From assembly GCA_950072105.1 (NCBI GenBank), contig CATMOE010000013.1, forward strand, positions 1-63,546: a stretch of DNA of 63,546 nucleotides. Direction: 5' to 3'. The stretch comes from an uncultured Dehalococcoidia bacterium (GTDB taxonomy: Bacteria > Chloroflexota > Dehalococcoidia > Lucifugimonadales > UBA3495). This document shows positions 1-17,455 of the stretch, piece by piece; position 1 is the first letter of the stretch; every line of letters begins with the position of its first letter. The notes beneath the pieces are model-generated. The model was not told the DNA's origin and made no database searches. It saw only the letters and a program-made list of their open reading frames with translations. The position numbers and the translations under genes are program-made.

Positions 1-276
1 GAAGTACGAGGAAGTCTACCTGAAAGCCTACTCCAACGGACGAGAGGCCAAGGCTGGCCTCGACGGTTACTTTCATTTCTACAACAACCAACGGCCCCAC
101 CAGGCCTTGGGCTACCGGACACCGGCTGAGGTGTTCAACGGAGATTCGGTGCAATCGACAGAACACCCAACAGGGGGGAGATGGTCACCAAACAGAGCAT
201 TGGTAAACCTTGGAAACACGGCGGGACTCTCACTTAATAATGCCCCAATCCTGTCCTACTGATGGGGTCCACCTTA
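1..276 (+). mobile_element. IS3-family insertion sequence, right end (OrfB integrase C-terminus plus right inverted repeat)
   Basis: Frame from nt 2 reads KYEEVYLKAY...YFHFYNNQRPHQALGYRTPAEVF, the typical IS3 OrfB C-terminus, with stop at 260-262. The terminus ...GGGGTCCACCTTA (276) is the inverse of the end found at 63413. Confidence 0.9.
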
Positions 277-1317
277 TTTAGCGAACTCTTCTCTGTGATC
301 AGGGAGGTCTATAGAGAAACTATCTAAGAACTTGACGACTTCTTCTTGCGAGCACTTTCGAGCCACCAAGACATAGTTCATGTATGCGATGCAAATCCCC
401 TTTGGCAGCCGAATATGCGAACCATCAGCTAACACTTCCTTGGCTAAAGCCACGATGATGTCACCAAGCTCGTCTAGAGATACCTCGACCTCACCGATGG
501 TCTTTAGCCCAACATATCCCAACTCCCCGATTTCATCTATCTCTCCAGCGGATACCTCAATTGCGGCCCCCGTATCGGAGGCAATCTGATCATCAAGCTC
601 AGTCACCTTTTGGCTTCCACTTATGAACGCCGAGAGAGACGCTTTGTCTATCAGTACCGACGAGGATGCATCACTGAGCCGTCTCGGCAAGTCGTGTTCA
701 TATTCCTTTAGCACATCTCTTATACCCTCGAACTCGCTGTCTGCTATTTCCAGCAGGCCAGCTAAGCGAGAGAAACGTCTGCGAATATCTCTCGGTACAG
801 CCTGTTCACTCTTGTATCCGAGATCGTGTTCTATTTCTGCCCAAGCATGCTGCAGGATCGACCGTATCTGAATCTCTACGACACAATCTACGTAGCGACG
901 GTATTCGGTCAACTGCATTCTTGTATCTGAAATAGTAGCTACATAGTGCAAAGAGATATAGCCGAATTTATCAGGGTCTAATTGCAAATTTTTATCAACA
1001 GAATTCGCCAAATCAATCGCAAATTCTGACTCTATCACCTTCGCTACCTCATATACGTCGTCGGCGTAGTGAGTAATTATCCGGACGCCACATATGTCTG
1101 TCACATGTATCAGTTCAGAGTAGTTGGCTCCGGAACGGCGAAGTTTCCGCTCCAGACTCGGTCTCTCTTTCACCCGTGATTCAATAGAGTGGACTTTGAT
1201 GTTGTTCTCTTCCAGAAGTTCTGCGACTAGCTCCTTCATCTTGTCTACATATCCTTCGAACAAAGGGAGCTTAGTCTCGAAATCCTGAACCATGGCTTGA
1301 ACCGAATCTGTGCTCAC
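274..1317 (-). CDS. RelA/SpoT-domain small alarmone synthetase-like protein (GTP pyrophosphokinase family), probably truncated at the C-terminus by the IS
   Basis: Motifs SRVK, DICGVRII, GYISLHY and EIQIRSILQHAWAEIEHDLGYK. Its stop codon (274-276) is the last 3 nt of the IS end. Visibly AT-richer than its neighbours. Confidence 0.88.
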   Translation of the reverse strand: MSTDSVQAMVQDFETKLPLFEGYVDKMKELVAELLEENNIKVHSIESRVKERPSLERKLRRSGANYSELIHVTDICGVRIITHYADDVYEVAKVIESEFAIDLANSVDKNLQLDPDKFGYISLHYVATISDTRMQLTEYRRYVDCVVEIQIRSILQHAWAEIEHDLGYKSEQAVPRDIRRRFSRLAGLLEIADSEFEGIRDVLKEYEHDLPRRLSDASSSVLIDKASLSAFISGSQKVTELDDQIASDTGAAIEVSAGEIDEIGELGYVGLKTIGEVEVSLDELGDIIVALAKEVLADGSHIRLPKGICIAYMNYVLVARKCSQEEVVKFLDSFSIDLPDHREEFAK

Positions 1318-1392
1318 ATCGTCCTCCGCTGGGTGCGCACCAATCTGGATACGTTTCCACGTCCGCCGTCGGCAGACCTAGGGAAGCTCGCA

Positions 1393-2550
1393 TTAGATCC
1401 TGCCCGGGTTCTTCAGTTCCAGGCCCAATCTAACCCGGCCGTACTCCTCTGCCTGGGTCTCCCAGTGGATGCCGAAGTGGTGGGAGGCGGCGTGGGCGTC
1501 GCGGTGGAAGCGCTGCATCGGGTTGGAGTTGAACAGCACGTGACCGCCGCTGGCCTCGAACAAGCGGTCCACGGCTCGAACGGCAAGTTTGGCCATGTAG
1601 GCCTGATTCCGGCGGCATCGGGCCCGCTGGCTGAGTGAAGGCATCTCACCTCGTCTAGCTTGGCCGAACACCTCTTCGCCGTCGTATTTCATGATCAGGC
1701 GGGCACAGTGGACCTCCGCTTCAGCCTCGGACAAACGGATATGGACCGACGGATTCTCGCCCAACTTATCTCCGGTGGTGTAGGTCACCCGTCCCATCAC
1801 CTGCTCCTCAAAGGTATCCACCGCTCCCTGGGCCATTCCCAACACCGGCGCCGCTAGGGTGTAGGAAAGCATGGTGGTGTGGGGAATGAGGTAGTTGCAA
1901 CTTCCGTGAATACTGCGTCCCGGAGATTGCCCGGCCCGCAGGTCTGCCACGTTCACCGCCCGATACTCGGGAATGAAGGCTTCCTCTATCACGATGTCCT
2001 TGCTGCCGGTGCCCCGCAGGCCGGAAACGAACCAGGTGTCCTCGATGGTGTAGTCGCGCCGCGGCACCAAGAACCATCGCAGGCCCTCGGCTGCGACGCC
2101 GCCCAGCATGGCCCACTCGGCGGCGTCGCAGCCGCTGGAAAAATCCCAACGTCCGCCGAGCTTGTAGCCTCCCTTGGCCGGGGTTACCTTGGCCCTCGTG
2201 GGATTGAAGGAGGTGGACGACAGCACGTCCGCCGAATCGGCCCAGTACTCCTCTTGAGCTTTCTCCGGGTACATTCCTACCAGCCAGTTGTGGCTGGCCC
2301 ATATGGAGTAACACCAAGAACTCGACCCACAACCCCGCCCCAACTCGGCGGCGATGTCCAGCACCACGGGATAGTCGATCTCATATCCGCCGAACCGCGC
2401 CGGCTGAGACGCCCGCAAGATGCCGGAAGCATGAAAGTCGTCTATGGTATCTTGGGGGATTTGGCGCAGTTCTTCGGTGTGGGCCGCTCGCTCTCGCAGC
2501 GCCGGGACCAGACCCGCCGCCCGATGCAGCAGTTCGTCTCGGTCCACCAT
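1393..2550 (-). CDS. Flavin-dependent hydroxylase, acyl-CoA dehydrogenase fold (HsaA/C2-type oxygenase component)
   Basis: Motifs QPARFGG, GRWDFSSGCD, W..SGLRGTGS and QRFHRDAHAASHH. Confidence 0.88.
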   Translation of the reverse strand: MVDRDELLHRAAGLVPALRERAAHTEELRQIPQDTIDDFHASGILRASQPARFGGYEIDYPVVLDIAAELGRGCGSSSWCYSIWASHNWLVGMYPEKAQEEYWADSADVLSSTSFNPTRAKVTPAKGGYKLGGRWDFSSGCDAAEWAMLGGVAAEGLRWFLVPRRDYTIEDTWFVSGLRGTGSKDIVIEEAFIPEYRAVNVADLRAGQSPGRSIHGSCNYLIPHTTMLSYTLAAPVLGMAQGAVDTFEEQVMGRVTYTTGDKLGENPSVHIRLSEAEAEVHCARLIMKYDGEEVFGQARRGEMPSLSQRARCRRNQAYMAKLAVRAVDRLFEASGGHVLFNSNPMQRFHRDAHAASHHFGIHWETQAEEYGRVRLGLELKNPGRI

Positions 2551-2730
2551 CGTGTCACCTCCAAGTGCTAAAGCCCGCCGAATCGTCTACAATTAGCAAA
2601 CGGTCAGAGCCGTTAAACGCGGGCACGCGGAAGCCGGCGCCGGTAAAGCCGGATACGCCTGATCGCATTAGAATCATACCCACACTCGAAACGGTTTACA
2701 ATCGAACCAGATCGACTGGGCATCAGGTGG

Positions 2731-3651
2731 TTGGGCAGATTGAGCGAGACCGGAAAACGTCTAAATAGGTTCCTTGAAAGGCTGACCAGCGGGAAAGTGC
2801 TGGTCTCCGATGGCGCCACCGGGACTTACCTCCAGTCCCACGGCCTGGAACCCGGCGCTTGCCCCGAAGAGTTCAACGCTAGCCATCCTGAGGTGATTCA
2901 AGGAATGGCGAGAGCCTACTTCGACGCCGGTTCCGAAATGGTCTTGACCAACTCTTTCGGAGCGAACCGGTTCATGTTGGCCAAGTACGGCTACGGGGAC
3001 CGGGTGGCCGAGTTCAACCGTTTGGCGGCGGAGCATGCCCGGAGTCAAGCGCCGGCCGGCGGCTTCGTCATCGGCTCGGTGGGCCCGTCTGGAGAATTTC
3101 TCCAACCCTTGGGCGAAGTATCAGAGCCGGAGATGCTGGACGCCTTTACCGAGCAGATGTTGGCGTTGGAGGAAGGCGGGGCCGACGGTGTGGTGATCGA
3201 AACCATGACGGCGCTGGAAGAGGCTCGATTAGCCATTCAAGCGGCCAAAGAAAACACCGGTTTGGCGGTGATCGCCACGATGGTATTCGACAAAGGGCCA
3301 AGGGGGTTCTTCACCATGATGGGAGTTACTCCGGAACAGGCGGTGGAGGGGCTGCTAGACGCCGGCGCCGACGTGGTGGGCTCAAACTGTGGCAACGGCA
3401 TCGACATCATGCTGGAGGTTGCCGCGGCGATGCGGGAAGCAACCAGCGCCCCATTGTTGATCCACTCCAACGCGGGGATCCCGACGCTGCAAAAAGGCGA
3501 GATCGTCTATCCCGAATCCTCGGAGTTCATGGCAGATCGATTCAAGGCACTGGCCGAGATGGGCGTCAACATCGTCGGAGGTTGCTGTGGGACGGGACCG
3601 GAACACATTCGGGCGTTGAAGACGTCGGTGGCAAGCCTGGTGCGGCCGTGA
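2731..3651 (+). CDS. Homocysteine S-methyltransferase family protein (stand-alone Hcy-binding module)
   Basis: DGATGT, TNSFG and ETM motifs; Zn ligands GSNC and GGCCG. Exact start codon uncertain. Confidence 0.9.
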   Translation: MGRLSETGKRLNRFLERLTSGKVLVSDGATGTYLQSHGLEPGACPEEFNASHPEVIQGMARAYFDAGSEMVLTNSFGANRFMLAKYGYGDRVAEFNRLAAEHARSQAPAGGFVIGSVGPSGEFLQPLGEVSEPEMLDAFTEQMLALEEGGADGVVIETMTALEEARLAIQAAKENTGLAVIATMVFDKGPRGFFTMMGVTPEQAVEGLLDAGADVVGSNCGNGIDIMLEVAAAMREATSAPLLIHSNAGIPTLQKGEIVYPESSEFMADRFKALAEMGVNIVGGCCGTGPEHIRALKTSVASLVRP

Positions 3652-4316
3652 CCAGCGCCAGCCGCCCCAGCGTGGCTCAAGTGATTGATGAGTACGGTAA
3701 GTGCCTGGAATTGGTGTCCATGGACCCCCATTTCCACGACATCAGCGTCGGCCTGTATCTGAAAGACGGCGTCTGCACCCTTTGGAGCTTCAGTAACAAA
3801 CCTGGCTTGGAGGAAAGGATCGCCGCTATCCGCGACCAATTCGTTGCTCTGGGCGGACTGACGCCGATAGAAGACACCCACGACAAGATCAGATTCCTTT
3901 GTGGCGACTTGCATCTACGGGCACTTAGATTCCTGCTGGCTCAGGCAGTGGGCAAAAGTCCGGACTTTTCCCCGGAGGGCGACGGCCTATCCATCCGGGA
4001 CACAAAAACCAAGCTCACTCTGAGCGTCGCGGGCCAAGAATCGGCGGGCCGTTGCGTTTACGAGATCTCGGCCACCGGCGAGGCTCCCAGCATCCCCGCC
4101 AGGTTGCGTTTGGTGGTGGCCGGGTTCGTGCGGTACGGCGAGATGGAAAATGTGGGCGACGCGGAAGTAGCGTTTCCCTGCGGCCAACGCCACGACCGTC
4201 TCATGGGAATACTGATGCCCTATTCACGAAACATCAGCGCCGTGGAAAACATGATGGAAGCGGATGCTATGCGAGGTCAGATGACCACCAGCACCCTGGG
4301 CTTCTCGGCCACCTAG
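3648..4316 (+). CDS. Hypothetical protein with two F-x-C-G-x-x-H repeats, translationally coupled to the Hcy methyltransferase
   Basis: GTG at 3648 overlaps the upstream TGA (GTGA). Contains FLCGDLH and FPCGQRH. Confidence 0.75.
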   Translation: MTSASRPSVAQVIDEYGKCLELVSMDPHFHDISVGLYLKDGVCTLWSFSNKPGLEERIAAIRDQFVALGGLTPIEDTHDKIRFLCGDLHLRALRFLLAQAVGKSPDFSPEGDGLSIRDTKTKLTLSVAGQESAGRCVYEISATGEAPSIPARLRLVVAGFVRYGEMENVGDAEVAFPCGQRHDRLMGILMPYSRNISAVENMMEADAMRGQMTTSTLGFSAT

Positions 4317-4345
4317 ACCCGGTATGGAATGTGCATTAAAATCTT

Positions 4346-4408
4346 CCGTTCGCCCTGAGCGTGTCGAAGGTCGGTGCGCCGGTGGTTCGACAAGCTCACC
4401 ACGAACGG
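4346..4408. repeat. REP/MITE-like palindromic element, family A
   Basis: CCGTTCGCCCTGAGC.TGTCGAAGG ... TGGTTCGACAAGCTCACCACGAACGG inverted arms; related copies at 5515, 43439 and 60053. Confidence 0.8.
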
Positions 4409-4462
4409 GGTTGGTGGCACAGATTACGCTGACTAATGGCCGTATTTACTAGAGGAGATGCC

Positions 4463-5497
4463 ATGGCATTTGTTGAAACCATGACCCCCCGGCAACGGGT
4501 GATGAACGCCCTGGCGATGCAGCCGGTGGACCGCACCCCCGTGGCAAATCCCACCAACGTCGCCACCGTGGACCTGATGGACTTGACCGACGCGCCGTTC
4601 CCCGACGCTTGCCGCGACCCGGAATTGGCCGCCCGGCTGGCCGCCACGGGCCACACCGAACTGGGCTTCGATTCTGTTATGCCCTACTTCACCATCATCC
4701 AGGAGTCTTCGGCCCTGGGCTGCGACATGCAATGGGAAGACAAGGACAATTGGCCCACGGTACGGATGGCCAATCCGATATGGAAGGGGTTGGAAGACAT
4801 CCACATACCGCCTGGGTTCCTGGAACACCGGGACAATCTGGCCATCACCAAGTCGATAGAGCTGCTCAAGCAAGAGTTCGGCGACCGGGTGGCGGTCATC
4901 GGCAAGACCATGGGTCCATGGACCCTGGCCTACCACGTTTTCGGGGTGGAGAACTTCCTCCTGATGACCGTCGACGACCCGGACATGGTGCTGCGGTCCA
5001 TGCACAAGCTGAAAGAGATATCGGTGCTGTTCGGCGAGGCTCAGATAGCGGCGGGGGCCGACGCTCTAACTTTCCCGGACCATGCCACCGGCGACCTGGT
5101 AAGCGGCGAGTACTACCGTAAGTTCTTGATGGAGATTCATCAGGAGATGGCCGAGCGTCTCAAAGTGCCATTGATCCTGCACATCTGCGGCAACACCCTG
5201 GACCGCATGGACTACATCGCCCAGACCGGCATGTCCAGCTTCCATTTCGACTCCAAGAATGACCCCCAGCAGGCCATGGATATCGTCAACGGACGCATCG
5301 GCTTGGTTGGCAACATCAACAACCCGGAAACCCTGTACGCCCGCGGCCCGGAGGAGGTCCGGCAGGAAGTGTTCCGGTGCCTGGACGCCGGAGTGCAGAT
5401 GATTGCCCCCGAATGCGCCGTGCCCTTGGCCACCAAACTAGAAAACCTGATCGAGATTCCCCGCGCGGTCAAGGCTTGGACCGAGGAGCACAGCTAG
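4463..5497 (+). CDS. MtaA/CmuA-family methylcobamide methyltransferase (MT2, UroD fold)
   Basis: TPRQRV..AL N-terminus, GPWTLA, Zn motif HICG, GNI and distal PECAV. AGAGGAG RBS precedes ATG 4463. Confidence 0.88.
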   Translation: MAFVETMTPRQRVMNALAMQPVDRTPVANPTNVATVDLMDLTDAPFPDACRDPELAARLAATGHTELGFDSVMPYFTIIQESSALGCDMQWEDKDNWPTVRMANPIWKGLEDIHIPPGFLEHRDNLAITKSIELLKQEFGDRVAVIGKTMGPWTLAYHVFGVENFLLMTVDDPDMVLRSMHKLKEISVLFGEAQIAAGADALTFPDHATGDLVSGEYYRKFLMEIHQEMAERLKVPLILHICGNTLDRMDYIAQTGMSSFHFDSKNDPQQAMDIVNGRIGLVGNINNPETLYARGPEEVRQEVFRCLDAGVQMIAPECAVPLATKLENLIEIPRAVKAWTEEHS

Positions 5498-5514
5498 GAC
5501 GGTGTCGCAAGCGG

Positions 5515-5581
5515 TGGTTCGACGAGCTCACCACGAACGGTAGGGCACCCTCCATTCCGTTCGTCCTGAGCCTGTCGAAGG
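5515..5581. repeat. REP/MITE-like palindromic element, family A (arms in swapped order)
   Basis: TGGTTCGACGAGCTCACCACGAACGG ... CCGTTCGTCCTGAGCCTGTCGAAGG. Confidence 0.8.
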
Positions 5582-5636
5582 ACCCGGCTTCCGAATCTCA
5601 AGATACCCTCTTGAAACCCTGAATGGAGAACGCAAC

Positions 5637-6398
5637 GTGACCATAGTTAACGATGGCTTGGAGCAGGAGTTAGGCCACGTGTCCAACCCGGCCGAGCTTA
5701 GACATATCCGGGGCCTGTTTGACGAATCGGACGCCCTGATGCAGCAGATCGCCTATGACCTGATAACCGGCCAAAACGTTGAGGTTGACCGTCTCACTCA
5801 GGAGGCCCTTGGCCAAGGCTATTCCGCGGAGACCATCCTGGACAACGGCCTTATTGCCGGCATGGCGGTGGTGGGGATCAAGTTCCGGGATAACATCATA
5901 TTCGTGCCGGAAGTTTTGGTAGCCGCCCGGGCCATGAAGGCCGGCATGGTCTACCTAGACCCGATCCTCTCCGCATCCGGCATCGAACCCCTAGGCATCG
6001 TGGTCATGGGAACGGTCAAAGGAGACCTGCACGACATAGGCAAGAACCTGTGCATCATGATGCTTCGCGGCTCCGGGTTCACCGTCCACGACCTGGGGGT
6101 GGACACCAAACCCGAAGAATTTATAGATGCCGTCTTGGAGCACGGCGCTCAAGTGCTGGGCATGTCGGCCCTGCTCACCACCACCATGCCCAACATGGGC
6201 CGGACCATCCAGGCGTTTGAGGACGCTGGAATGCGCGACGAAGTCAGGATAATGGTGGGCGGCGCCCCCCTGAATCAGGAATTCGCCGACGACATGGGCT
6301 CCGACGGCTACGGTAAGGACGCCATGGACTGTGTAACACTGGCCAAACGATTGTTGGGCCTGGAAGAGATTCCCAAAGCGGCGCCGGCGGCGACCTGA
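5637..6398 (+). CDS. Corrinoid (B12-binding) methyl-carrier protein
   Basis: Cap domain FVPEVLVAARAM; DLHDIGKN cobalamin motif; SALLTTTM and VGGAP. Confidence 0.95.
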   Translation: MTIVNDGLEQELGHVSNPAELRHIRGLFDESDALMQQIAYDLITGQNVEVDRLTQEALGQGYSAETILDNGLIAGMAVVGIKFRDNIIFVPEVLVAARAMKAGMVYLDPILSASGIEPLGIVVMGTVKGDLHDIGKNLCIMMLRGSGFTVHDLGVDTKPEEFIDAVLEHGAQVLGMSALLTTTMPNMGRTIQAFEDAGMRDEVRIMVGGAPLNQEFADDMGSDGYGKDAMDCVTLAKRLLGLEEIPKAAPAAT

Positions 6399-6410
6399 GG
6401 AATCGGACCT

Positions 6411-6668
6411 GTGGAAAATAGCGTAGACAAAGCCCGTGTCCAGGCCAGCATGGCCCGGCTGCAGGACATCCTGAAGGGGATCGGGGAAACCGCCAACGAG
6501 GTTTCAACCTGGCGATGCCCCTACAAGAACGCTCAAGACCTGTGCACCGCCAATTTTGGCTGCCGCAACCAGTCCCACCCACCCGCCGGGGACGACTTGC
6601 CGGTCTGTCTGGGCAGCGACGATCTAGATTATCTCGAAGCCTGGGAAGCCGAAAAAACACCGGAATAA
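6411..6668 (+). CDS. Small 4-Cys protein in the corrinoid cluster
   Basis: 85 aa with WRCPYKN..DLCTANFGCRNQ...VC; GAGGA RBS; begins 12 nt after the corrinoid gene. Confidence 0.7.
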   Translation: MENSVDKARVQASMARLQDILKGIGETANEVSTWRCPYKNAQDLCTANFGCRNQSHPPAGDDLPVCLGSDDLDYLEAWEAEKTPE

Positions 6669-6739
6669 CGCTCCTCACGCAACTCCTCATACCAACGTCC
6701 GATCATCAAGCACCCCCGGTCCGCGAACTTGCCCGACAC

Positions 6740-6882
6740 TGTCACTCCGATCCTTCGGCGGAAGGAGAGGAGTCTCATACCTGGTTGTAGCAGTCACCTA
6801 AGATTCCTCGCCGCCCTTCCGCCGAAGGGCTGGTGTCGGAGCGCGGCCGAAGGTTGTCAATTCTATTTTCGGAGCAATGACA
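6740..6882. repeat. Palindromic REP/MITE-like element, family D
   Basis: TGTCACTCCGA...TCGGAGCAATGACA ends and an internal CCTTCGGCGGAAGG inverted pair; similar in style to 12466-12538 and 53494-53576. Confidence 0.6.
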
Positions 6883-6931
6883 TTGGCGATGCAGCGGCAA
6901 GCCCTCCGATTCACGATGCTACAATACCGCC

Positions 6932-8569
6932 ATGTCTCCCCTACATCACTCCGGCCAAGTCATTGAGCTAACCGCCGGACGCACGATATTCGACTACGCC
7001 GACGAAGTTAGAGTCAGGGTACCCACCTCCTGCGGCAGGGTGGGCGATTGCCACGAATGCATCGTGGAGATCAGGCGGGGCATGGAGGGTCTGAGTCCTC
7101 CCAGCAAGGCCGAATCTTTCCTGAGCGGCAACTACCGGCTGGCCTGCCAGGCATCTATCGCCGACTCCGGCGCAGACGTCGAGTTCGCTCCCTTGCGCCG
7201 CCAGCCGAGAATCCTCACCCATTCCGTCCATCGCGACATCGACCCGGACCCTCTGACAGTGCGTGAGGGAGATTCCGTCTTGTTCAACGGCCGCCAGACC
7301 GGCCGCTATCAGGGCAGCATCTATGGGTTGGCCATAGACGTCGGCACCACCACTGTGGCGATGAATCTGGTGGACTTGGAATCCGGCGCCACCATACACA
7401 CCGCGTCCTTCGAAAACCCTCAAAAGTTCGGCGGCAGCGACGTAATGAACCGCATCGCCTACGACGGCGGCCCAAACCGGGGCGAGTTGCGGCAGGTGAT
7501 GTTGTCCGCCATAAATTTTGAGATCGGGGAGATGGCCCGCAGTCTAGGGTTCCACCGCCGCCGCATCTACGAAGTCGTCGTGGTGGCCAATTCCACCATG
7601 CGGGACCTGCTGTTTGGCCTTGACGTGCAATCCATCGGCGAGAGACCCTACCAGTCTTCAACCGAGATAGAGCTCCACCAGGGCAAGCGGGCCACCACCG
7701 CCCTAAACGTGCGCGCGGGAGACCTGGACCTGCGGGTACACCCCGACGCCAATGTTTACGGCGGTCCTTTGATCGGCTGTCATGTCGGAGCGGACGTCGC
7801 CGCCGACCTCCTGGCCGTGGGCATGGACCAGACTGACGATGTGGTGATGCTGGTGGACGTGGGCACCAATACCGAAGTGGTCATCGGCAATCGACACCGC
7901 ATGATGGCCGCGTCCTGCCCAGCGGGTCCGGCATTTGAAGGCGGACAGATCACGTTCGGAATGCCCAGTTACGACGGCGCCGTGGAGTCGGTGGAATTGG
8001 TGAACGGCCGCGCCGACTGCCGGACTATTGGCGGGGTTGAACCTCGGGGGATCTGCGGCTCGGGGTTGGTGGACTTGTTGGCCCAACTGAGGTCCGGCGG
8101 CCAGATGAACCATTTAGGCGCGTTTCTCGACGGCGGAAACGAGTTTTTCTTCGCGCCGGAACAAGGCATGTCGCTTACACGCGCCGACATCAGCGCCCTA
8201 GCCCAGGCCAAGTCGGCCAACTATTCGGGCCAGTACATCGTCTTGAGAAACTACGGAGCACCCCTGGAGGAGATCAGCCAGCTGTATCTGGCGGGCGCCT
8301 TCGCTAACCACATCAACGTGGACAACGCGATGCAGATCGGCTTCATCGCCGATTTTCCTCCCGGCAAGATAACCAAGATGGGCAACGCGTCGCTGGAGGG
8401 GGCCACTCTGATGCTCATCTCCGGCAAGATGCGGCAGACGGCCGAGGAGTTGGTGCGGCGTGTAGAGCACGTCGAATTGGAGTCTACGCCTGACTTTTTC
8501 GACATCTTCGTGGAGGGCTGCATGTTTAATCCGATGGCCCGGACCTTTGAGTCGCCGAACGAGGGGTAG
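6932..8569 (+). CDS. ASKHA-domain reductive activator of corrinoid proteins (RACo/DUF4445) with N-terminal 2Fe-2S ferredoxin
   Basis: CGRVGDCHEC...RLACQ; DVGTTT; DVGTNTE; AGPAFEG; GICGSG; LAGAF. Confidence 0.93.
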   Translation: MSPLHHSGQVIELTAGRTIFDYADEVRVRVPTSCGRVGDCHECIVEIRRGMEGLSPPSKAESFLSGNYRLACQASIADSGADVEFAPLRRQPRILTHSVHRDIDPDPLTVREGDSVLFNGRQTGRYQGSIYGLAIDVGTTTVAMNLVDLESGATIHTASFENPQKFGGSDVMNRIAYDGGPNRGELRQVMLSAINFEIGEMARSLGFHRRRIYEVVVVANSTMRDLLFGLDVQSIGERPYQSSTEIELHQGKRATTALNVRAGDLDLRVHPDANVYGGPLIGCHVGADVAADLLAVGMDQTDDVVMLVDVGTNTEVVIGNRHRMMAASCPAGPAFEGGQITFGMPSYDGAVESVELVNGRADCRTIGGVEPRGICGSGLVDLLAQLRSGGQMNHLGAFLDGGNEFFFAPEQGMSLTRADISALAQAKSANYSGQYIVLRNYGAPLEEISQLYLAGAFANHINVDNAMQIGFIADFPPGKITKMGNASLEGATLMLISGKMRQTAEELVRRVEHVELESTPDFFDIFVEGCMFNPMARTFESPNEG

Positions 8570-8571
8570 CC

Positions 8572-9366
8572 ATGCAAGTTAACCCAATAGGGCCGTTCAC
8601 TCTCGGCAAGATTCTTTCAGAAACCATTCGCATGTACCGGCGTAACGCTTTAGGCTTCCTAGCGATTGCCGCCATTGTACAGATCCCCTTGAGCATGTTG
8701 ACGTGGCTCTTATTCAGATCGAACGAATTCCCGATGGAATTTCCGCCCCAGGAGATTCCAACCGCCTCAGTTTGGATCCGTTATATATTTAATTACCTGG
8801 CGAAATCGCTTCTTGTAGGGCTGGCATGGATCCTGATGCAGGGCGCCTTGATCCACGGGATATCCGAGCAATTCCTCTGGAGGCCGATACAGGTAGAAGT
8901 CGCGTATTACTCTTCCCTAAATAGATTTTTCCCAAGGCTTGATGCATTGATTCTCTCCGGGTTCGCTTTGCTCCTGATGTGGATAACCGTGCTTGGAATT
9001 CCTTTCGCCATACGATACGGGGGACTCTGGGTGTTCATCCTTCAAACCGCTTCAGTGGAGGAACTAGGACCCCGGGCAGCCATGTCTAGAAGCGCGGAGT
9101 TGGTTCGTGGCAGTTGGTCACGGGTCGCCTCGATCTTTTTCGTCGCGGGGATCTTGTTTGGAATCTTAGGCGTGATAATCGGCTTGCTGGTTGGCTTCAT
9201 CCCAGTTGCAGGGGCGACGATAGGCACGATTATCACGGCGCCATTTCTAATCATCGCCCACACAATTCTTTACTTTGACTTAAGAACCCAAAAAGACGAG
9301 GCGTTCAATCTGGAGGTTTTGGCCAGCGACCTCCGGATCGAGGTTGAAGAAAGTCCTGGATCCTGA
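8572..9366 (+). CDS. Integral membrane protein (GDPD membrane-anchor-like)
   Basis: Several hydrophobic helices; A..RS.ELVRG.W and LYFDLR motifs typical of this family. Confidence 0.7.
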   Translation: MQVNPIGPFTLGKILSETIRMYRRNALGFLAIAAIVQIPLSMLTWLLFRSNEFPMEFPPQEIPTASVWIRYIFNYLAKSLLVGLAWILMQGALIHGISEQFLWRPIQVEVAYYSSLNRFFPRLDALILSGFALLLMWITVLGIPFAIRYGGLWVFILQTASVEELGPRAAMSRSAELVRGSWSRVASIFFVAGILFGILGVIIGLLVGFIPVAGATIGTIITAPFLIIAHTILYFDLRTQKDEAFNLEVLASDLRIEVEESPGS

Positions 9367-9487
9367 CCCTAGCACCCCATCCTTTCTGCTGCGCTAAGTA
9401 CAGGCTCTAACTCCCCCCGTAAAGAGGGGATGGAAATCTCCTTCCCATTGCGAAGGAGGAGATTAGAGAGGAAGTCGCCCGGCTTCC

Positions 9488-10348
9488 TTAGGACCGCAGG
9501 TACAATTCCTGCATCTGGATGAACTCATCGGTCCGGTTGACCTCCCGCAACAACTCTGGTGAAGCCTCGTTTGAGGCCAGGTCTGCCACGTCCCCGCCGT
9601 CCTGCAGGTGCTTGAAGCAGTCGTAAACGGCTTTCACCGCCATTCCGAAAGCGGGGTTGCCCGCCATCACGATTCTCACACCGTTGGCGGCCATGAATGC
9701 AGGGTCGTTCCTCATGTCGTCGGGAGGGCTCAACACAGTCAAGGGCAGCGGGGTTGCTTGATGTATCGCCTCAAGCTGCTCCCTGGTCTTGAGGCCGGTT
9801 AGCCTGACCGCCTCGACACCGGTTTGCGAATAGGCGCTGATCCGGTCCAAGGCCTCATCCAAGGGGCAATAGGTCAGGGCGGAGGTGCGGGCTACGATAA
9901 CGGTACCGGGATCGTTGCGGGCGGCCACCGCCGCTTCCAGCTTTCCCACCTGCTCGGCTTGGGAAGCCAACCCCGGGTCCCATGAATCGAACCGAGCGCG
10001 GGCGATATTGTCTTCGATCTCTATGGCCGAAACACCCACGGCTTCCAATTCCTTAACGGTGCGCATGGTGTTCACCGCGTTGCCGAATCCTTCCTCGCCA
10101 TCCAACATCAGGCTTACGTCCGCCATGCGCATGATTCGGCGGCAATGGTCGACCGAGTCTGAGGAGTTGTAAAGAACGATGTCCGGCACTCCCAAATTAG
10201 CTACCTTACCGACCGACCCGGACAGAAAGCAGACTTCATAATCCAACATATGGGCGATGCGGGCCGATAGAGGGTCGAAAATGTTGGCGGCTAGGGTGCA
10301 GTCGGGCCGGGATAGGACTTCGCGGAATCGATCTCGCATCTTTGACAT
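9488..10348 (-). CDS. Isocitrate lyase/PEP mutase superfamily protein (oxaloacetate decarboxylase-like)
   Basis: FDPLSAR, D.E.GFG, IEIED and IVART; lacks the KxCGH loop of the lyases. Confidence 0.85.
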   Translation of the reverse strand: MSKMRDRFREVLSRPDCTLAANIFDPLSARIAHMLDYEVCFLSGSVGKVANLGVPDIVLYNSSDSVDHCRRIMRMADVSLMLDGEEGFGNAVNTMRTVKELEAVGVSAIEIEDNIARARFDSWDPGLASQAEQVGKLEAAVAARNDPGTVIVARTSALTYCPLDEALDRISAYSQTGVEAVRLTGLKTREQLEAIHQATPLPLTVLSPPDDMRNDPAFMAANGVRIVMAGNPAFGMAVKAVYDCFKHLQDGGDVADLASNEASPELLREVNRTDEFIQMQELYLRS

Positions 10349-10493
10349 GACTTGAACTTCTCCCTATCTATTTGGGCGCATTTTAGCTTCGGCGCCGTGG
10401 CCGGTCAATCCGGTCTTTAATCGATCATTGCGCTCTTCCCCAACCTGGCTTACACTCCCTAAACTTGATTCAAGACGAAGGCAGGTGACGAAC

Positions 10494-10688
10494 ATGCCGA
10501 TCGAGAAGGAAACCCTGAAAGCGATGATCCGCGACTATCACGGGTTCGAGATATCGGACGAGGAGTTGGACCTGGTAGCCCCCGCGCTGAACGGCTACTT
10601 GGCGGAAGTGGAAAAACTGAGAGACCTGGACCTATCGGACATCATGTCCGGCCGATTGCTTCATGCTGACGAAGGCGGTGAAAACTGA
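10494..10688 (+). CDS. Small GatC/AtzG-like partner of the amidase
   Basis: 64 aa acidic helical protein; its stop overlaps the amidase ATG. Confidence 0.65.
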   Translation: MPIEKETLKAMIRDYHGFEISDEELDLVAPALNGYLAEVEKLRDLDLSDIMSGRLLHADEGGEN

Positions 10689-12121
10689 TGGCTGACTCTG
10701 ATCTGCTCACACTTACGATCTCGGAACTGGCGCCGAGGATCAAAGCCAAGGAAATCTCTCCGGTAGAGCTAACCGAGGCCGCGTTGGCCCAGGCCGATCG
10801 GCTTCAACCCAAACTGAACTCGTTCATCACCTTGCTCCACGATCAAGCGAGGTCCCAAGCGAAGGAGCAAGAGGCGGCGCTGATGCGGGGGGAGCACCGG
10901 GGGCCACTGCACGGCATTCCCATCGGGATCAAAGACAACATCGCCACCGCCCACATCAAGACCACCGTTGGCTCCAAGGTATTGGCCGACCATGTGCCGG
11001 ACGAGGACGCATTGGTAGTCACAAGGATGAAAGAAGCCGGAGCCATCATCTTGGGCAAGGAGAACCTGGAGGAGTTTGCCGCCGGACCCACCTCCAACAA
11101 CCTCCATTACGGGGCGGTGCACAACCCCTGGAACCTGGACCACATTCCTGGAGGATCCAGTGGGGGAGGGGGCGCCAACGTGGCGGCCGGCGTGACCTTC
11201 GCGTCTTTGGGCACCGACCTGGGCGGCTCGGTGCGAGGTCCGGCCAACTTTTGCGGCGTGGTTGGCATGAAGCAGACATACGGGCGGGTGAGCCAGCGGG
11301 GCCTGCAAGTCACCAGTTTCAACGGCGACCACATCGGCCCCATGACCCGGTCGGTCAGCGACAGTGCTCTGGTACTCCAAGCGATAGCCGGGTACGACCC
11401 TCTGGACCCCAGCACGGTGCCCGTCCCCGTCCCAGACTTCTCGGAATTCCTGGATCGGGGACTCACCGGACTCAAGATGGGCGTACCCAGCGACTACTAT
11501 TTCGACATGCTGGACCCGGAAGTAGAAGCGGCCGTCCGTCTGGCCATCGACGCCATGGCAGAGTTGGGTGTGGAAGTCCGCCCAGTGGCATTGCCCAGCA
11601 TGAAATATGCCGGGGCGATGCGCATAGCGGGCATGGCGGATAGCATCGTGACCCACGAGCCGTTGATCGAGAGGGGGCGGGATGACTACGGTCCCACCGT
11701 TCTGTACCGGACCCTGGCCGGCCAGTTCATTCTGGGAAGGGACTATTCCAAAGCCCTGAAAGTGCAGCGGATCATCAAAGAAGAGTATGCGAAAGTCCTT
11801 CAGGACGTAGACTTCCTGGTCACCCCATCGGCCCCTGTCGCGGCCTGGCCGATCAACTCGGAAACCGTCAACATCGCGGGCGCTGATTATCCCGTCAGGG
11901 GCCCCGGAGCGGGCATGACGTCAAGATGCACCAGCCCCAGCAACTCCACCGGGCTGCCCGCCATGTCCGTCCCTTGCGGATTCACCAAGGGCGGTCTGCC
12001 CATCGGTGTCCAGTTGATCGGGCGTCCCTTTGAAGAACCCTTACTCTACCAAGCTGCCCAAGCGTACGAGGCCGTTTCGCCAAGCCTTGGCCTGCGGCCT
12101 GCGATCGCCGGCAATTCGTGA
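10688..12121 (+). CDS. Amidase signature family protein
   Basis: GPLHGIPIGIKD, GGSSGG, GTDLGGSVR and GLPIGVQLIG. Confidence 0.93.
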   Translation: MADSDLLTLTISELAPRIKAKEISPVELTEAALAQADRLQPKLNSFITLLHDQARSQAKEQEAALMRGEHRGPLHGIPIGIKDNIATAHIKTTVGSKVLADHVPDEDALVVTRMKEAGAIILGKENLEEFAAGPTSNNLHYGAVHNPWNLDHIPGGSSGGGGANVAAGVTFASLGTDLGGSVRGPANFCGVVGMKQTYGRVSQRGLQVTSFNGDHIGPMTRSVSDSALVLQAIAGYDPLDPSTVPVPVPDFSEFLDRGLTGLKMGVPSDYYFDMLDPEVEAAVRLAIDAMAELGVEVRPVALPSMKYAGAMRIAGMADSIVTHEPLIERGRDDYGPTVLYRTLAGQFILGRDYSKALKVQRIIKEEYAKVLQDVDFLVTPSAPVAAWPINSETVNIAGADYPVRGPGAGMTSRCTSPSNSTGLPAMSVPCGFTKGGLPIGVQLIGRPFEEPLLYQAAQAYEAVSPSLGLRPAIAGNS

Positions 12122-12189
12122 TTTAAGGGCTGGTAAGACGTACTTAAGACCGGCTGATGACAGCCGATGAGAGAGTTGTATCGAATTTT

Positions 12190-12432
12190 ATGGACTACGA
12201 CTACGGCTTCACGGCCACCACGATCAGTCTGGGGCCGGAGATTACCGCCGAATCTCCGGCCGAATCCATCAGCGGCGCCATCGTCCAGCCCTTGGCGGAG
12301 TTTGGGGAGCGCCTGTCGGCGTCGCTGCCCACCTACGAGGGCGGCGATTGGGAGGTAGTGTCCCACAGCACCACCAGGATTGAAGACAACCTGGTGGTGA
12401 CGGTTCTGATAAGGCGTCCCAAGACGGAGTGA
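12190..12432 (+). CDS. Small hypothetical protein
   Basis: Protein-like composition with a WEVVSH motif; start could also be 12157. Confidence 0.55.
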   Translation: MDYDYGFTATTISLGPEITAESPAESISGAIVQPLAEFGERLSASLPTYEGGDWEVVSHSTTRIEDNLVVTVLIRRPKTE

Positions 12433-12561
12433 AGTTACGTTGAGTCCCCCGCTACGCGAGGACCCGTTATTCTGAGCGAAACGAAGAATCTAGTCCGGGG
12501 TGTGAGAACCTTTCGTCGCTCCACTCCTCAGAATGACATTTCGTGGGGTAATCTGAGCTTT

Positions 12562-15201
12562 TCAGTCTTCTACGCCGGCATCCACCGGTATGATATACAC
12601 TCCCTTGGCCCTGGGTAGCAGGGAGCTTTCGTAGTTGAAGTGGGTCTCCACGGCGACTCTGAACTTATGGTCCGGTAGTTGCTGCCAGGCGAAGGGGACC
12701 GGGTTCCAGCCGACCATTTGTAGGAGCCTCTTTTTACTGACCACCGTGGAATCAATGCCGGCATCGTTGATTCGCAGCAGATTGGCGGTCATGGCGAAGT
12801 CGTCGCGCACTTCTTTTCCGGTGGTGAACAGGACCTTGCTGGGAGAGGGTCCTTCCGTTTGTTCCTCCAGCACGACCCAGCTAAGAAGATGGTCCCAGTC
12901 CACGATTCTGGCAAAACTGTCGGGGTTCGTATGGAATTCCCTATCGGTCAGGTCCACCGCCCAAAGGCCGCCTCCCTCATCAATGAATCCGTACAGGGTG
13001 TTGAATAGGTTTTGGCTGTCGGAACTCAAGGCGGCCGAGACTCCATACAAACCCTCCTCAGGGGCCTCTGGGTACTGGGAAATAGGATATTCAACTTCTT
13101 CGTACTCGTCCGGGTTGTTGACGTCGACTATATAGACCGACTGCCATCTGGGATCGGCCCGCTTCCCTTCTTCAGGGCCAGGCCAACCTTCGGAGCTTAT
13201 CATCCAGCGGGTATCGTCCCAGGGCAGGGGCAGGGCCATAAGCATCACGCCCGGCGAGGTATAGATCTCGCGTCCCTCCCCGGCAGCGTCTAGCTTAAAA
13301 ATCTTGTGCCGTTGCTTCTTATCGGTCTCCAGAGAGCGGCGGACTATCGTGTAGAATTCGTCCGAATCCGCGCCACTCACTCGATAGCGGCGTAGCCCGC
13401 TGGAGGTATCGCACTCTTCTAGCCAGGAGACATCCAGCCCGGTCAATACGCCGGCCACCCAGGAACTTTCAAACCCAAAATATCTAAATTTTTCCCCTAC
13501 GCCCCCTCTCAAAAGCTGGAATACGCGTTCGCCAAAAAGCCGGGAGGCATAATTACCATCCGGACCCGGTTGATCCGAATCGAACTGGTACCCTACGGAT
13601 GATAATAACTGGACGTAAACCGGGTCTTGCAGGCTCTCCTGGTACACGCCACATTGCTTGCGCGCCAAGGGCGTGGCCGGATAACGTTGCTCGTCAAAGG
13701 GCAAGGCCAGGATCTCTTCTTCGTATTCCTTGGCCAGGCTGGAGTCTCCCGCGCTTAGGGCTCGCGGGTTCACGTGGAAGTGAGTAGGGGAGGACAGGTC
13801 AGGCTTGGGAGACTCCGCGGGCGGGGGCCTAAATTCTTCAAATATGGCCCCGATCTCCTGTTCCAGAGGCAGGTCCCCGGACAAGTCGACTTCCTTGACG
13901 GATTCTTCCGTGTTCCCCTGGGCGATACCGATAACCGCCTCCCGGTTGCCTCCGGTCTCGGACAAGAATTCCGTGTCCAACTGCCCGTAGACGTACTCGA
14001 CAGTCCCATCAGCATGGAGAACCGCTTGGAAGGTATTGGTTGGCGTATCCGAATCGCACCCATCGGCGGAGCCTCGCTCGATATGGGCGACTTGATTCCA
14101 GGTCACCACCGCCCGGTCCGAACGAACGTCGGCATGAACGCTGCCGGCGCACGCGGGGTCCAGGTCGGTCAGCAACACCGAAAGTCTCGGCGGGCCTCCG
14201 AGATGTCTTTCAGCGGTACGGCCGGCGCTGGTGCCGTCCCCAGCCCCTAACGTGATATGGCCGTCGGAGCCAACGAAGATCGAGTCGTAATCAACGCCTA
14301 GAAAAGGGAAGGGCGTCACCAAAGTAATCTCGGAAAAGCCGTCGTCGGGCGGGGCGCCGCCGCCGTCATCCAAGGACAGGGCCGGACCTAAGACAGGGTC
14401 GAGACTCTGTCCGGTGTCCGATTCCAACTGGAAAGCCCCCGCGCCGCTGGGAATGAATCGGAGCCGCGTTCCGGGTTGGATGTCCAAGAGGTTGGCCTCA
14501 ACGACGGGCTGAGCGCCATCCCATTCTTCCGGCAGATCAAAGGGGATGACCAGGAAGGTGCCGTCGGGGAACACCTCGGAAACGACACCGCCGGTCTCCT
14601 TATCCTGGAGGTACTGGAATTCCACGGAATGAAACAGGTCATTGGAAAAGCTATCCGGCTCCAGTTTTCCGGCCAAACCTTCGGCCAGGGGTACACCCAT
14701 GGCCCTAAGCCGGAATACCTTGTGCACCGGATGTTCGCCGATGAGGTCAGACTCCAATGCCAACAGATCCAAGTACCGGCTCTGGTCCCCTTGCATCAAG
14801 CGGAGTTTGACCTTCCCATTCAGCTCCAAGACCAGGTTCGGGTCTCCTTCAGGTTCGACCAATACCCCATCGGTGGAGGTAGCGAAAAAGTGGGGCTTCA
14901 CCAACTCAGACACGCTTCGGGAAACGTCGTAATTCTCTCTAGGCAGAATCAACTCTTGGGAGACACTACCAACAACGCTTGCATCGATTACATCATTACG
15001 GGGGACAACTATCGTCGGAACCGGATCGGCGGTTGCCGTTGGCGTTGGAGCCGATTCCGCCACCGGAGTGGGTGTAGCGGTGGGCGACGGTGTTGACTGG
15101 TTCTTGGCGCAGCCGGCCAACGCGATAATTCCCGCCAGCAAAAGCCCCACGAATAATCCACTTCTACGTGACCGGTTCAGATATCCAAGGTCATTAAACA
15201 T
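12562..15201 (-). CDS. Large lipoprotein with PT linker, nidogen(NIDO)-like domain and C-terminal beta-rich/propeller-like region
   Basis: Lipobox LAGC; PTATPTP linker; DDGFSEITL..PFPFLG..YDSIFVGSDGHITLG and NTFQAVL..DG NIDO-like motifs. Confidence 0.75.
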   Translation of the reverse strand: MFNDLGYLNRSRRSGLFVGLLLAGIIALAGCAKNQSTPSPTATPTPVAESAPTPTATADPVPTIVVPRNDVIDASVVGSVSQELILPRENYDVSRSVSELVKPHFFATSTDGVLVEPEGDPNLVLELNGKVKLRLMQGDQSRYLDLLALESDLIGEHPVHKVFRLRAMGVPLAEGLAGKLEPDSFSNDLFHSVEFQYLQDKETGGVVSEVFPDGTFLVIPFDLPEEWDGAQPVVEANLLDIQPGTRLRFIPSGAGAFQLESDTGQSLDPVLGPALSLDDGGGAPPDDGFSEITLVTPFPFLGVDYDSIFVGSDGHITLGAGDGTSAGRTAERHLGGPPRLSVLLTDLDPACAGSVHADVRSDRAVVTWNQVAHIERGSADGCDSDTPTNTFQAVLHADGTVEYVYGQLDTEFLSETGGNREAVIGIAQGNTEESVKEVDLSGDLPLEQEIGAIFEEFRPPPAESPKPDLSSPTHFHVNPRALSAGDSSLAKEYEEEILALPFDEQRYPATPLARKQCGVYQESLQDPVYVQLLSSVGYQFDSDQPGPDGNYASRLFGERVFQLLRGGVGEKFRYFGFESSWVAGVLTGLDVSWLEECDTSSGLRRYRVSGADSDEFYTIVRRSLETDKKQRHKIFKLDAAGEGREIYTSPGVMLMALPLPWDDTRWMISSEGWPGPEEGKRADPRWQSVYIVDVNNPDEYEEVEYPISQYPEAPEEGLYGVSAALSSDSQNLFNTLYGFIDEGGGLWAVDLTDREFHTNPDSFARIVDWDHLLSWVVLEEQTEGPSPSKVLFTTGKEVRDDFAMTANLLRINDAGIDSTVVSKKRLLQMVGWNPVPFAWQQLPDHKFRVAVETHFNYESSLLPRAKGVYIIPVDAGVED

Positions 15202-15234
15202 CAGAGACTCGAATCATAGGTGTTTGTAACTCGA

Positions 15235-15987
15235 CTATTCCCCCCAAGTCTGGCCGAACTCCCTACGGAGGACCATCTGACCGGTGAGGGACTGGGCGTC
15301 TCTTAGCGCTAGATACACGGCGGAAGGGCCGACGACCTCCGGTTCAACCCTTTGATCCCAATCGTGTTGCGCCCAAGGGATGACCGACGAGCCTTCACTC
15401 TTCATGGAGCCCGGATCCAGGATGTTAACCGCTATGTTGTATTCTCGCATATCCTGAGCTAGGCACTGGCTAAACATATGCAACGCCGCCTTGCTGGTAC
15501 AGTAAGCCGTACCGTTAATCCTGGGGTCTGAGGCCGCGAAGGAACCGATGTTGACGATGCTGCCGCGCCGTTGACTCATCATCACCGGCAACACATACCG
15601 GCAAGTCAGGTAAGCTCCGCGCAGATTAACGTTCATCAACTGGTCCCATCTGCCGGGCTCAATGTCCAGGAAGGATTCTCCCAGGATCATGATGCCGGCG
15701 TTATTAACCAGCACATCCACTTTCCCGTAACGGTCCACCACCTGTTGGACCATGCTCTTCACTTGTACCTCATCGGATACGTCGCAGGCTATCGCCAAGG
15801 ATTCACCGCCTTGGTCTTGGATCGCCTGAGCAGTTTCAGCAACGGTTCCCGGTAGTTGGGTGGGTGACGCGGGGCGGGCGCAGGCCACCACCGTGGCGCC
15901 TTCCCGGCCGTATTCCAGGGCGATAGCGCGCCCGAGACCTCTGCTGCTTCCGGTAACGATCGCGACCATTCCCCGCATCTTGTCCAT
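15235..15987 (-). CDS. SDR family NAD(P)-dependent oxidoreductase
   Basis: TGSSRGLG, NNAG and YCTSK. Confidence 0.95.
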   Translation of the reverse strand: MDKMRGMVAIVTGSSRGLGRAIALEYGREGATVVACARPASPTQLPGTVAETAQAIQDQGGESLAIACDVSDEVQVKSMVQQVVDRYGKVDVLVNNAGIMILGESFLDIEPGRWDQLMNVNLRGAYLTCRYVLPVMMSQRRGSIVNIGSFAASDPRINGTAYCTSKAALHMFSQCLAQDMREYNIAVNILDPGSMKSEGSSVIPWAQHDWDQRVEPEVVGPSAVYLALRDAQSLTGQMVLRREFGQTWGE

Positions 15988-16093
15988 ATCATTCCTCGCC
16001 CTATAAAACCCGCGTTTCGATTCCAGACCGAAATGAGATTATACCCCGGCCTCGATTTGTGCCTATTTCCACGGCTAGAGAGCGGCCATTCCC

Positions 16094-16122
16094 TTGACCG
16101 TCCAGGTAGGCGTTGCTACACT
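16094..16122 (+). promoter_or_regulatory. Putative sigma70 promoter for the LLM gene
   Basis: TTGACC-17 bp-TACACT with an extended TG. Confidence 0.55.
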
Positions 16123-16239
16123 CGTTGCCGTTGCCACGCTTCCGATGCTGCCCTAAAGCAAAATCATCAAAGGTATCTTGCGCCGCGCTGCTTCAAGAGT
16201 AACCTGGGAAGCGCGCCTTAACTTTCGGAGGAAACCAGT

Positions 16240-17289: not shown

Positions 17290-17455
17290 CGGCTGGAAAT
17301 AAGACGCGGCTGTTCGGTGTAGACGCCGAATCAGATGCGCGGCCGAAGGACGGCTTTCCTGCCGGAATTCGCACTGGAGTTAACATCCGCGGAATCGGCT
17401 TTCAAGCCTATAATTCTTATCAGCTAGAGCTCGACGCCCTTTGGAGCCAACCGAA

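Follow-up and report, generated by a model that had tools for sequence, protein, structure and literature searches.

Introduction

Methyl groups are passed over corrinoid proteins in several known ways, and these form the background to the six-gene operon described here, which lies at positions 2731-8569 of a 63,546-nucleotide stretch of DNA from an uncultured Dehalococcoidia bacterium (contig CATMOE010000013.1, assembly GCA_950072105.1; the whole stretch is called the window below). Ruegeria pomeroyi has the MtgBCDE hub and Phaeobacter inhibens a split MetH in three parts; both combine one stand-alone corrinoid protein (PF02607 + PF02310) with a separate homocysteine methyltransferase (PF02574), a RamA-type activator and a donor arm (PMC12478193; PMC5764234). 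In the Methanosarcina systems MtsA/MtsB, MtpA/MtpC and MtsD/F/H, a zinc enzyme of the methyltransferase 2 (MT2) family adjoins a corrinoid gene, or is fused to the corrinoid part, and can act as the substrate-specific methyltransferase 1 (MT1) for thioethers; MtpA, an MT2 homologue, was shown to be such a thioether MT1, with a first step that is uphill by ~20 kJ/mol (10.1101/548461). Type 1 mlp clusters, found in obligate anaerobes, hold at least two MtaA-like proteins (Mlps) with a His-Cys-Cys site, a corrinoid protein as well as a Ram activator but no folate methylase, and salvage of methyl-sulfur or methyl-selenide groups into methionine has been proposed for them (PMC10418091). The CmuA/CmuB chloromethane system likewise uses a UroD-type donor methyltransferase, with CmuA fused to its corrinoid domain and paired with CmuB and CmuC.

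The operon encodes a homocysteine methyltransferase (HMT), an unannotated protein (UNK), a zinc methyltransferase (MTA), a corrinoid carrier (COR), a small cysteine protein (CYS) and an activator (RACo; Table 1). It appears to work like an MtgBCDE hub with an MtpA/MtsA-type donor arm, and it falls outside MtgBCDE, MtsA, type 1 mlp and CmuA as these are defined. Carrier, separate acceptor enzyme and activator are those of the hub, HMT being 39% identical to the MtgE-like Bmt of S. meliloti and COR 49% to the cobalamin-binding carrier of the same species, and a pterin methyltransferase occurs in 26 of 77 genomes with a close MTA. Unlike in MtgBCDE, a zinc enzyme with the UroD fold takes the place of the MttB-family MtgB as donor arm (PF06253 in 1/33 genomes), the DUF1638 accessory protein was found in 0/31 genomes, two partners are unannotated, and the source genome was found to have no folate arm (MtgD, PF00809); moreover, folate arm and MetH coincide in 0/77 genomes here, whereas 28 of 239 metH genomes carry MtgBCD (PMC12478193). 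MTA differs from MtsA in its separate clade (30% identity), in its acceptor partner, a homocysteine methyltransferase, and in its host, a marine bacterium. The operon differs from type 1 mlp clusters in pairing a single MtaA-like gene (20-25% identity) with HMT, and from CmuA, whose methyltransferase domain is 23% identical and whose corrinoid domain is related to COR (39%), in that MTA is unfused. Full-text searches of a literature collection that holds few subscription papers and no supplements found no published description of the operon.

We read the operon as a relay in which MTA-UNK would move methyl from a methylthioether to COR, kept active by RACo, and HMT would pass it to homocysteine, releasing the thiol and giving methionine without folate. 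In our judgement this reading has about an even chance of being correct. Its starting points are direct observations: the gene set and its family assignments, metal-ligand motifs that are intact, a conserved gene order and the way in which the folate arm is distributed.

Results and Discussion

The six genes and their conservation

The source genome comprises 4.08 Mb in 164 contigs (92% complete), and the window is the entire contig C13. All six genes are intact and lie on the plus strand, as reading frames and family profiles confirm for the co-oriented set listed in the preliminary description; the GTG start of UNK overlaps the HMT stop codon.

Table 1. Operon genes and other features named in the text, with positions in the window unless a contig or locus is given.
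Feature	Position	Strand	Description
HMT	2731..3651	+	PF02574, 216 bits; stand-alone homocysteine S-methyltransferase, MtgE/Bmt-like, acceptor arm
UNK	3648..4316	+	222 aa; no Pfam or NCBIfam match
MTA	4463..5497	+	PF01208; TIGR01463 246 bits (cut-off 235); MtaA/CmuA-family zinc methyltransferase
COR	5637..6398	+	PF02607 + PF02310; MtgC-like corrinoid carrier protein
CYS	6411..6668	+	85 aa; four invariant Cys: C36, C45, C51, C66
RACo	6932..8569	+	PF00111 + PF17651 + PF14574; N-terminal 2Fe-2S domain
Second HMT paralogue + ~376-aa protein	L291:7143-9259, L292:6902-9016, L293:6872-8948		Three genomes without MetH, MeTr or PF01717
Repeated elements	4341-4420, 5501-5595, 6691-6930		~57, 80 and 40 places in the genome, respectively
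Transposase-like fragment	2-262	+	Contig end; lower-GC sequence
Alarmone synthetase-like gene	274-1317	-	RelA/SpoT domain, small type (PF04607); lower-GC sequence
Monooxygenase gene	1393-2550	-	HsaA-like, flavin-dependent; divergent from operon
SelD	C60:2148-3071		In-frame TGA
MetE-type tandem genes	C55:7100-12700 (L290)		PF01717, short C-terminal type

Conservation was assessed in the best 80 MTA loci, which were picked by MTA similarity alone and come from species-level genomes with 79-89% identity in MTA. Counted with hidden Markov models built from the same loci, several of which stop at contig ends, HMT is present in 71 of them, UNK in 73, COR in 68, CYS in 68 and RACo in 39; in 5/5 tested genomes whose locus has no RACo, the gene is present elsewhere. 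The six-gene arrangement is therefore not chance. The closest relatives of MTA come from Dehalococcoidia, Chloroflexota or SAR202 records and from four Entotheonella records. A close MTA was found in 22 of 60 sampled relatives and in 6 of 301 phylum-wide genomes, a further 26 of which have homologues at 28-52%. In the bacterium's own family, a stand-alone HMT tracks MTA, occurring in 8/8 MTA-bearing genomes as against 0/6 genomes that lack it.

HMT has Cys220, Cys285 and Cys286 (numbered from TTG 2731, though translation may begin a few codons downstream), is 30% identical to the corresponding domain of the source genome's own MetH, and belongs with the other cluster HMTs to one clade (Shimodaira-Hasegawa-like approximate likelihood ratio test, SH-aLRT, 97). 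COR carries the DxHxxG motif with His132 and is 30% identical to the protein in MtsB position at locus L195. The four cysteines of CYS are invariant in 22/22 aligned rows, no Pfam family is common to two or more of its members, and CYS likely binds a metal. By its domains, RACo is a RACo/RamA-type ATP-dependent reductive activator of a corrinoid protein.

Only two further neighbours are conserved. A ~113-aa PF13769 ('Virulence factor') protein is encoded upstream of HMT in 50 of the 80 loci (L039-L118) and a 2-hydroxyacid dehydrogenase adjoins 29 of them; the former was not found in the source genome, and the latter is there encoded on contig C18. The dehydrogenase also adjoins 50%-identical MTA homologues (L154, L156), and this linkage may indicate that the substrate or product is a hydroxy or oxo acid, which we take as a lead only. 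At the Gemmatirosa locus L265, a PF13769-matching stretch and the corrinoid protein share one reading frame. The spacer between UNK and MTA is an insertion hot spot in relatives (L040-L118), with DUF433/DUF5615 pairs and DUF4268 proteins recurring there. The genes that flank the operon vary from locus to locus.

The folate arm alternates with MetH

The preliminary description noted that the cluster has neither a recognisable MT1 nor a folate module. For the source genome this holds: PF06253 (MttB/MtgB) and PF12176 (MtaB) gave no match, with the MtmB/MtbB families not searched for, and no stand-alone pterin methyltransferase (MeTr; PF00809) was found at 92% completeness. Its PF00809 matches are a DHPS and a fused 1171-aa MetH on contig C19, complete with its own activation domain. 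For the relatives it holds in part, with MeTr standing inside the operon in 14 of the 80 loci. A canonical MT1 is not consistently carried either, MttB being found in 1 of 33 genomes and MtaB in 0 of 31.

A genome-wide PF00809 search covered 27 close-MTA genomes (among 46 searched) and a further 50 that were reached from 50 out of the 71 loci left over. Among these 77 genomes, 46 have a MetH-type gene without cluster-type MeTr, 26 have MeTr without MetH, five have neither, and none has both. A pterin module carried consistently by relatives had been named as the sign of a plain split methionine synthase; the outcome is split, with MeTr in 26/77 genomes, all of them without MetH, and no MeTr in 51/77. 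Some class assignments deserve comment. In G404 the MetH-type hit lies in a 518-aa frame and was classed as MetH. G037, which has no fused PF02574, contains an 853-aa frame with a DHPS-type score. A third PF00809 hit occurs in four Entotheonella genomes; the single one that was scanned resembles DHPS, and 0/2 fetched regions match the MeTr profile.

In the MeTr genomes without MetH, the operon would itself be the methionine synthase. Of the 16 MeTr genomes in the first set, 11 have no PF02574 gene besides the cluster HMT, two of these 11 (95-97% complete) also lack PF01717, and MTHFR-type genes stand in two clusters (L187, scanned; L188, judged from gene size alone). The methionine synthase of Phaeobacter is a three-part enzyme of the same build (PMC5764234). 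The operon would thus act as a split methionine synthase in genomes that lack MetH, and it is retained without the folate arm in those that have it. Because MeTr and MetH alternate strictly, MeTr would serve mainly as a biosynthetic input of methyl-tetrahydrofolate (methyl-THF) rather than as an oxidation route. In Ruegeria, MtgD moves substrate methyl groups into folate for oxidation (PMC12478193); such a role is disfavoured for MeTr here, since owning MetH would not then make it dispensable.

HMT, UNK, MTA, COR, CYS and RACo are retained in genomes without MeTr, and HMT tracks MTA. These two observations argue for a methyl exchange between MTA and HMT over COR, with no folate step, and we infer that this exchange is one state of a larger hub. 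The B12 shuttle between two zinc-thiol enzymes that was proposed in the preliminary description is accordingly the simplest reading for the operon without stand-alone MeTr in the 46 MetH genomes, and does not extend to the 26/77 in which it is part of a split methionine synthase.

The same distribution bears on whether the operon is now idle, left over from a split methionine synthase whose folate arm disappeared once MetH had been acquired. The occurrence in relatives of complete operons with MeTr, some also with MTHFR, and the frequent status of the cluster HMT as sole PF02574 gene would suit such a history. All six frames are intact, however, and MTA is 79-89% identical across 80 species-level genomes, most tested ones with MetH; MTA, UNK and CYS are parts of no known split MetH, and contigs from RNA libraries span all six genes in pieces, which is a weak indication. 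We regard an idle remnant as highly improbable.

Of the five genomes with neither MetH nor MeTr, one (G044) encodes a strong MetE-like protein (279 bits). In the other four, PF01717 gave no match at 1e-20, RACo is encoded elsewhere in the genome and a second HMT paralogue is present; their methyl groups for homocysteine must come from a source other than folate, or their methionine from outside. In three of these four genomes, the second paralogue is followed by a conserved ~376-aa protein (Table 1). These proteins share 78-88% mutual identity, have no Pfam, NCBIfam or PDB match and contain a DAGMG motif, which presumably recalls SAM (S-adenosylmethionine)-dependent methyltransferases.

MTA has a zinc site suggestive of sulfur or selenium chemistry

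The label 'MtaA-type MT2' given to MTA in the preliminary description is correct as to TIGR01463 family membership, but it is a family name and no statement of role. MTA scores below the cut-offs of the equivalog profiles NF040654 (229 vs 400) and NF041608 (196 vs 600), and so falls outside the MtaA and MtbA equivalogs. Its model has the UroD fold and superposes on Methanosarcina mazei MtaA (4AY8) with a TM score of 0.93 and a root-mean-square deviation (rmsd) of 1.6 A. The zinc triad His239, Cys241 and Cys317 (numbered from 4466) is invariant in 17/17 rows, including MtsA. A His-Cys-Cys site is that of S/Se-methyltransferases, and O-demethylases replace one or both Cys ligands (PMC10418091); the site of MTA points to S or Se chemistry. 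Fused MTA-COR proteins are known at 64-69% identity and tie MTA to COR as its carrier. Since UroD-fold MT2 homologues such as MtpA and MtsA act as MT1 (10.1101/548461), the MT1 that seemed to be absent need not be missing, and MTA can be it.

A scan with a short sequence motif found 74 metagenome loci. Most of these have an MT2-type gene, often beside a corrinoid gene, and one such protein is the M. mazei methylthiol:CoM methyltransferase by exact look-up. In a quick 48-row tree, MTA lies within a 26-row clade (SH-aLRT 94) apart from MtsA, CmuA (23% identity, E 1e-9) and three putative Mlps of locus L266 (20-25%). A presumed N-terminal motif in common with MtsA had suggested kinship, but neither this tree, whose 8-row MtsA clade (SH-aLRT 100) leaves MTA outside, nor the 30% identity supports membership in MtsA. 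Separately, ~45%-identical MTA homologues with an insertion (L158, L159, L161, L162, L164-L166) are solitary, usually flanked by RNase Y and a polysaccharide deacetylase; no corrinoid gene lies close by, and their genomes lack UNK.

The zinc site also bears on two alternatives that keep MTA as a methyl donor arm. MTA and UNK might serve a non-sulfur methyl compound (methoxy compound, methanol, methylamine-type osmolyte or methyl halide), with UNK and an extra histidine, His206, shifting the specificity. The UroD superfamily does hold O- and halogen-demethylases (PMC10418091), His206 is invariant in 35/35 family rows and absent from MtsA, and the UNK tail is predicted at the zinc ligands of MTA. 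Yet both Cys ligands are kept, unlike in the O-demethylases (PMC10418091), and CmuA is a low-identity relative that stands far off in the tree. We consider a non-sulfur substrate improbable.

Alternatively, the relay may recycle methyl-selenides, as proposed for type 1 mlp clusters, giving selenide for selenoproteins and methyl for methionine. A His-Cys-Cys site would suit selenium, and the SelD gene of the source genome has an in-frame TGA. However, SelD occurs in 57/60 relatives irrespective of the operon and shows no specific link to it, the resemblance of MTA to the putative Mlps of L266 is low and the operon has only one such gene, and no selenium genes were seen among its annotated conserved neighbours. 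These points make methyl-selenide recycling very unlikely. SelD with one in-frame TGA in those 57 genomes is, in its own right, consistent with selenocysteine use across the order.

UNK is a predicted subunit of MTA

The preliminary description allowed that the unknown genes might encode a new MT1 family. A free-standing MT1 among them is now unlikely: UNK consists of two alpha/beta domains, is predicted as a subunit of MTA and is not a TIM barrel, the fold of known MT1 proteins, which its confident model excludes. Each domain has an FxCGxxH motif, and a conserved RG tail follows at the C-terminus; C85, H89, C178 and H182 are conserved in at least 44 of 48 rows. There are 206 relatives among 50%-identity cluster representatives, and the named members of the cluster are all merely 'hypothetical protein'. 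The AlphaFold (AF2) model has a pLDDT of 92.8 (tail ~60) and shows two small alpha/beta domains. Foldseek gave no match at E 0.001 or better and no Atlas hit was found; the best structural match has Z 6.8 and rmsd 3.3 A over 87 residues, with the whole protein rather than single domains as query. The two halves gave no BLASTP match to each other, and the internal repeat rests on motif and secondary structure.

Within Chloroflexota and Entotheonella, the context covered, UNK follows the close MTA. It is present in 21 of the 22 close-MTA genomes among the 60 relatives, and also in one fragmented genome without close MTA; phylum-wide it occurs in 5/6 close-MTA genomes and in 0/26 genomes with only distant MTA homologues. 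Prediction of an MTA-UNK complex gave a score of 0.86, against 0.00 for the best of three controls. Of 157 solved pairs, 116 reach the mark applied to such scores, as against 2 of 215 mismatched ones, a rough calibration, with alignments of our own used here. Across prediction runs at least 85% of contacts agree, with a partner pLDDT of at least 84, and the predicted interface takes in MTA Cys241 and Cys317 and UNK residues 207-214. MTA columns at this interface are clade-specific, that is, specific to the UNK-associated clade, in 13/35 cases vs 51/297 for the others (p 0.011). UNK is thus a predicted subunit that binds MTA, and it may bridge both enzymes, MTA and HMT.

Which way the methyl group moves

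Under the methylthioether relay, RACo would hold COR as Co(I) with ATP and electrons. RamA and RACo have a known role in reductive corrinoid activation. The His-Cys-Cys zinc of MTA would bind the sulfur of R-S-CH3 so that Co(I) could take the methyl, as in MtpA and MtsA, and the C-terminal tail of UNK is predicted to shape or gate the MTA active site. HMT would then hand the methyl from the corrinoid protein to homocysteine, yielding methionine. Methyl uptake by MTA would be uphill by ~20 kJ/mol and pulled by HMT, the net thioether-to-thioether exchange being near neutral. The donor could be methylmercaptopropionate, dimethylsulfide/methanethiol, or a 2-hydroxy or 2-oxo acid that bears an S-methyl group and on which the linked dehydrogenase would act. 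Where relatives lack a fused MetH, MeTr would join the same carrier and the hub would become a methionine synthase; in the source genome, where the MeTr gene is absent, MetH would do that job.

Two points favour the donor direction: searches turned up no other donor arm (MttB 1/33, MtaB 0/31), and the four genomes described above have no other recognisable methyl source for homocysteine. In the opposite direction, MTA would be the acceptor arm, a true MT2 that methylates a small thiol (sulfide, methanethiol or a mercapto acid), whether to detoxify it or to form a methyl-sulfur product, with methyl coming from methyl-THF via MeTr or from methionine via reverse HMT. Transfer from a methyl-corrinoid to a thiol is downhill and is the usual role of MtaA and MtbA, the closest structure to the MTA model is MtaA, and distant homologues occur in loci that have MeTr, COR and RACo but no HMT (L154, L156, L160, L163). 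On the other hand, the 51/77 genomes without stand-alone MeTr would be forced to supply methyl from methionine via reverse HMT, and the four genomes would drain methionine without a recognisable route for its synthesis. We judge an acceptor role for MTA unlikely, though it fares better than the non-sulfur and selenide alternatives.

Several points weigh against the methylthioether relay. Sequence does not reveal the direction of the MTA reaction. MTA resembles MtsA (30% identity) no more closely than it does MtaA (27-28% in the structural alignment), and the tree rows include no MtaA, MtbA or MtpA. The 77 genomes are kin and not independent trials; some are incomplete, and for 50 of them completeness is not given. 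The four genomes without MetH, MeTr and PF01717 may be nothing more than methionine auxotrophs. Beside the operon in the 80 loci, no gene specific to a substrate (transporter or sulfur pathway) is kept, and the methanethiol oxidase family PF05694, expected to remove the thiol product, was not found in the source genome. As to UNK, clade-specificity of the MTA interface among conserved columns only is not significant (p 0.08) in what is a partly circular check, and in 5/5 genomes with a broken operon UNK stays beside HMT rather than MTA, which, like the overlap of UNK with the HMT stop codon in the window, is contrary to a simple pairing.

Genomic context and RNA libraries

In the source genome MTA is the only PF01208 gene found, and ComA was not found. 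The genome has 11 PF01717 matches on C55 and other contigs, several in tandem and of the short C-terminal MetE type (Table 1). Some core methionine synthases accept methyl from corrinoid proteins, and these short proteins could be further acceptors for COR.

The stretch is present wholly or partly in 11 runs recorded as RNA, runs with a small share of its words being excluded; they are labelled marine, hydrothermal-vent or marine-sediment metagenomes. In contigs from the four runs examined, the six genes are covered piecewise, one contig bridging HMT-UNK and another COR-CYS. Such contigs also cover the opposite-strand neighbour of the operon, and the comparison includes no silent control; they are evidence of presence in the library, neither of a transcript nor of its level. 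Repeated elements lie between operon genes (Table 1), and it is to these that depth spikes and apparent joints in the RNA-library coverage are attributed. Promoter and terminator scans of the locus gave results near chance, and Rfam had no match in window positions 1-20000.

Upstream, the window begins with what reads as a transposase fragment, adjoining the PF04607 gene in lower-GC sequence. The HsaA-like monooxygenase gene next to the operon is retained in a genome of the same genus (G002), and related genes stand near ~10 other loci.

Implications

The distribution assigns the arms of the hub: the folate arm substitutes for MetH, and the MTA-HMT pair has a job of its own. The predicted MTA-UNK heterodimer suggests that MTA activity may depend on co-expression with UNK. 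Both the deep ocean and sponges harbour abundant SAR202 bacteria. More specifically, and only tentatively, we propose that MTA and UNK form a two-subunit B12-dependent thioether demethylase through which SAR202 bacteria would move methyl from dimethylsulfide, methanethiol or methylmercaptopropionate into methionine without folate, as the sole methionine route in some lineages. If so, it would be an ocean sink for methyl-sulfur compounds so far unrecognised, run by an enzyme of methanogen type whose zinc site would be capped by a subunit from a new protein family. The MtgBCDE hub concept would gain a second class of donor arm, and SAR202 would draw methyl from the marine organosulfur pool by chemistry so far known in methanogens and anaerobes.

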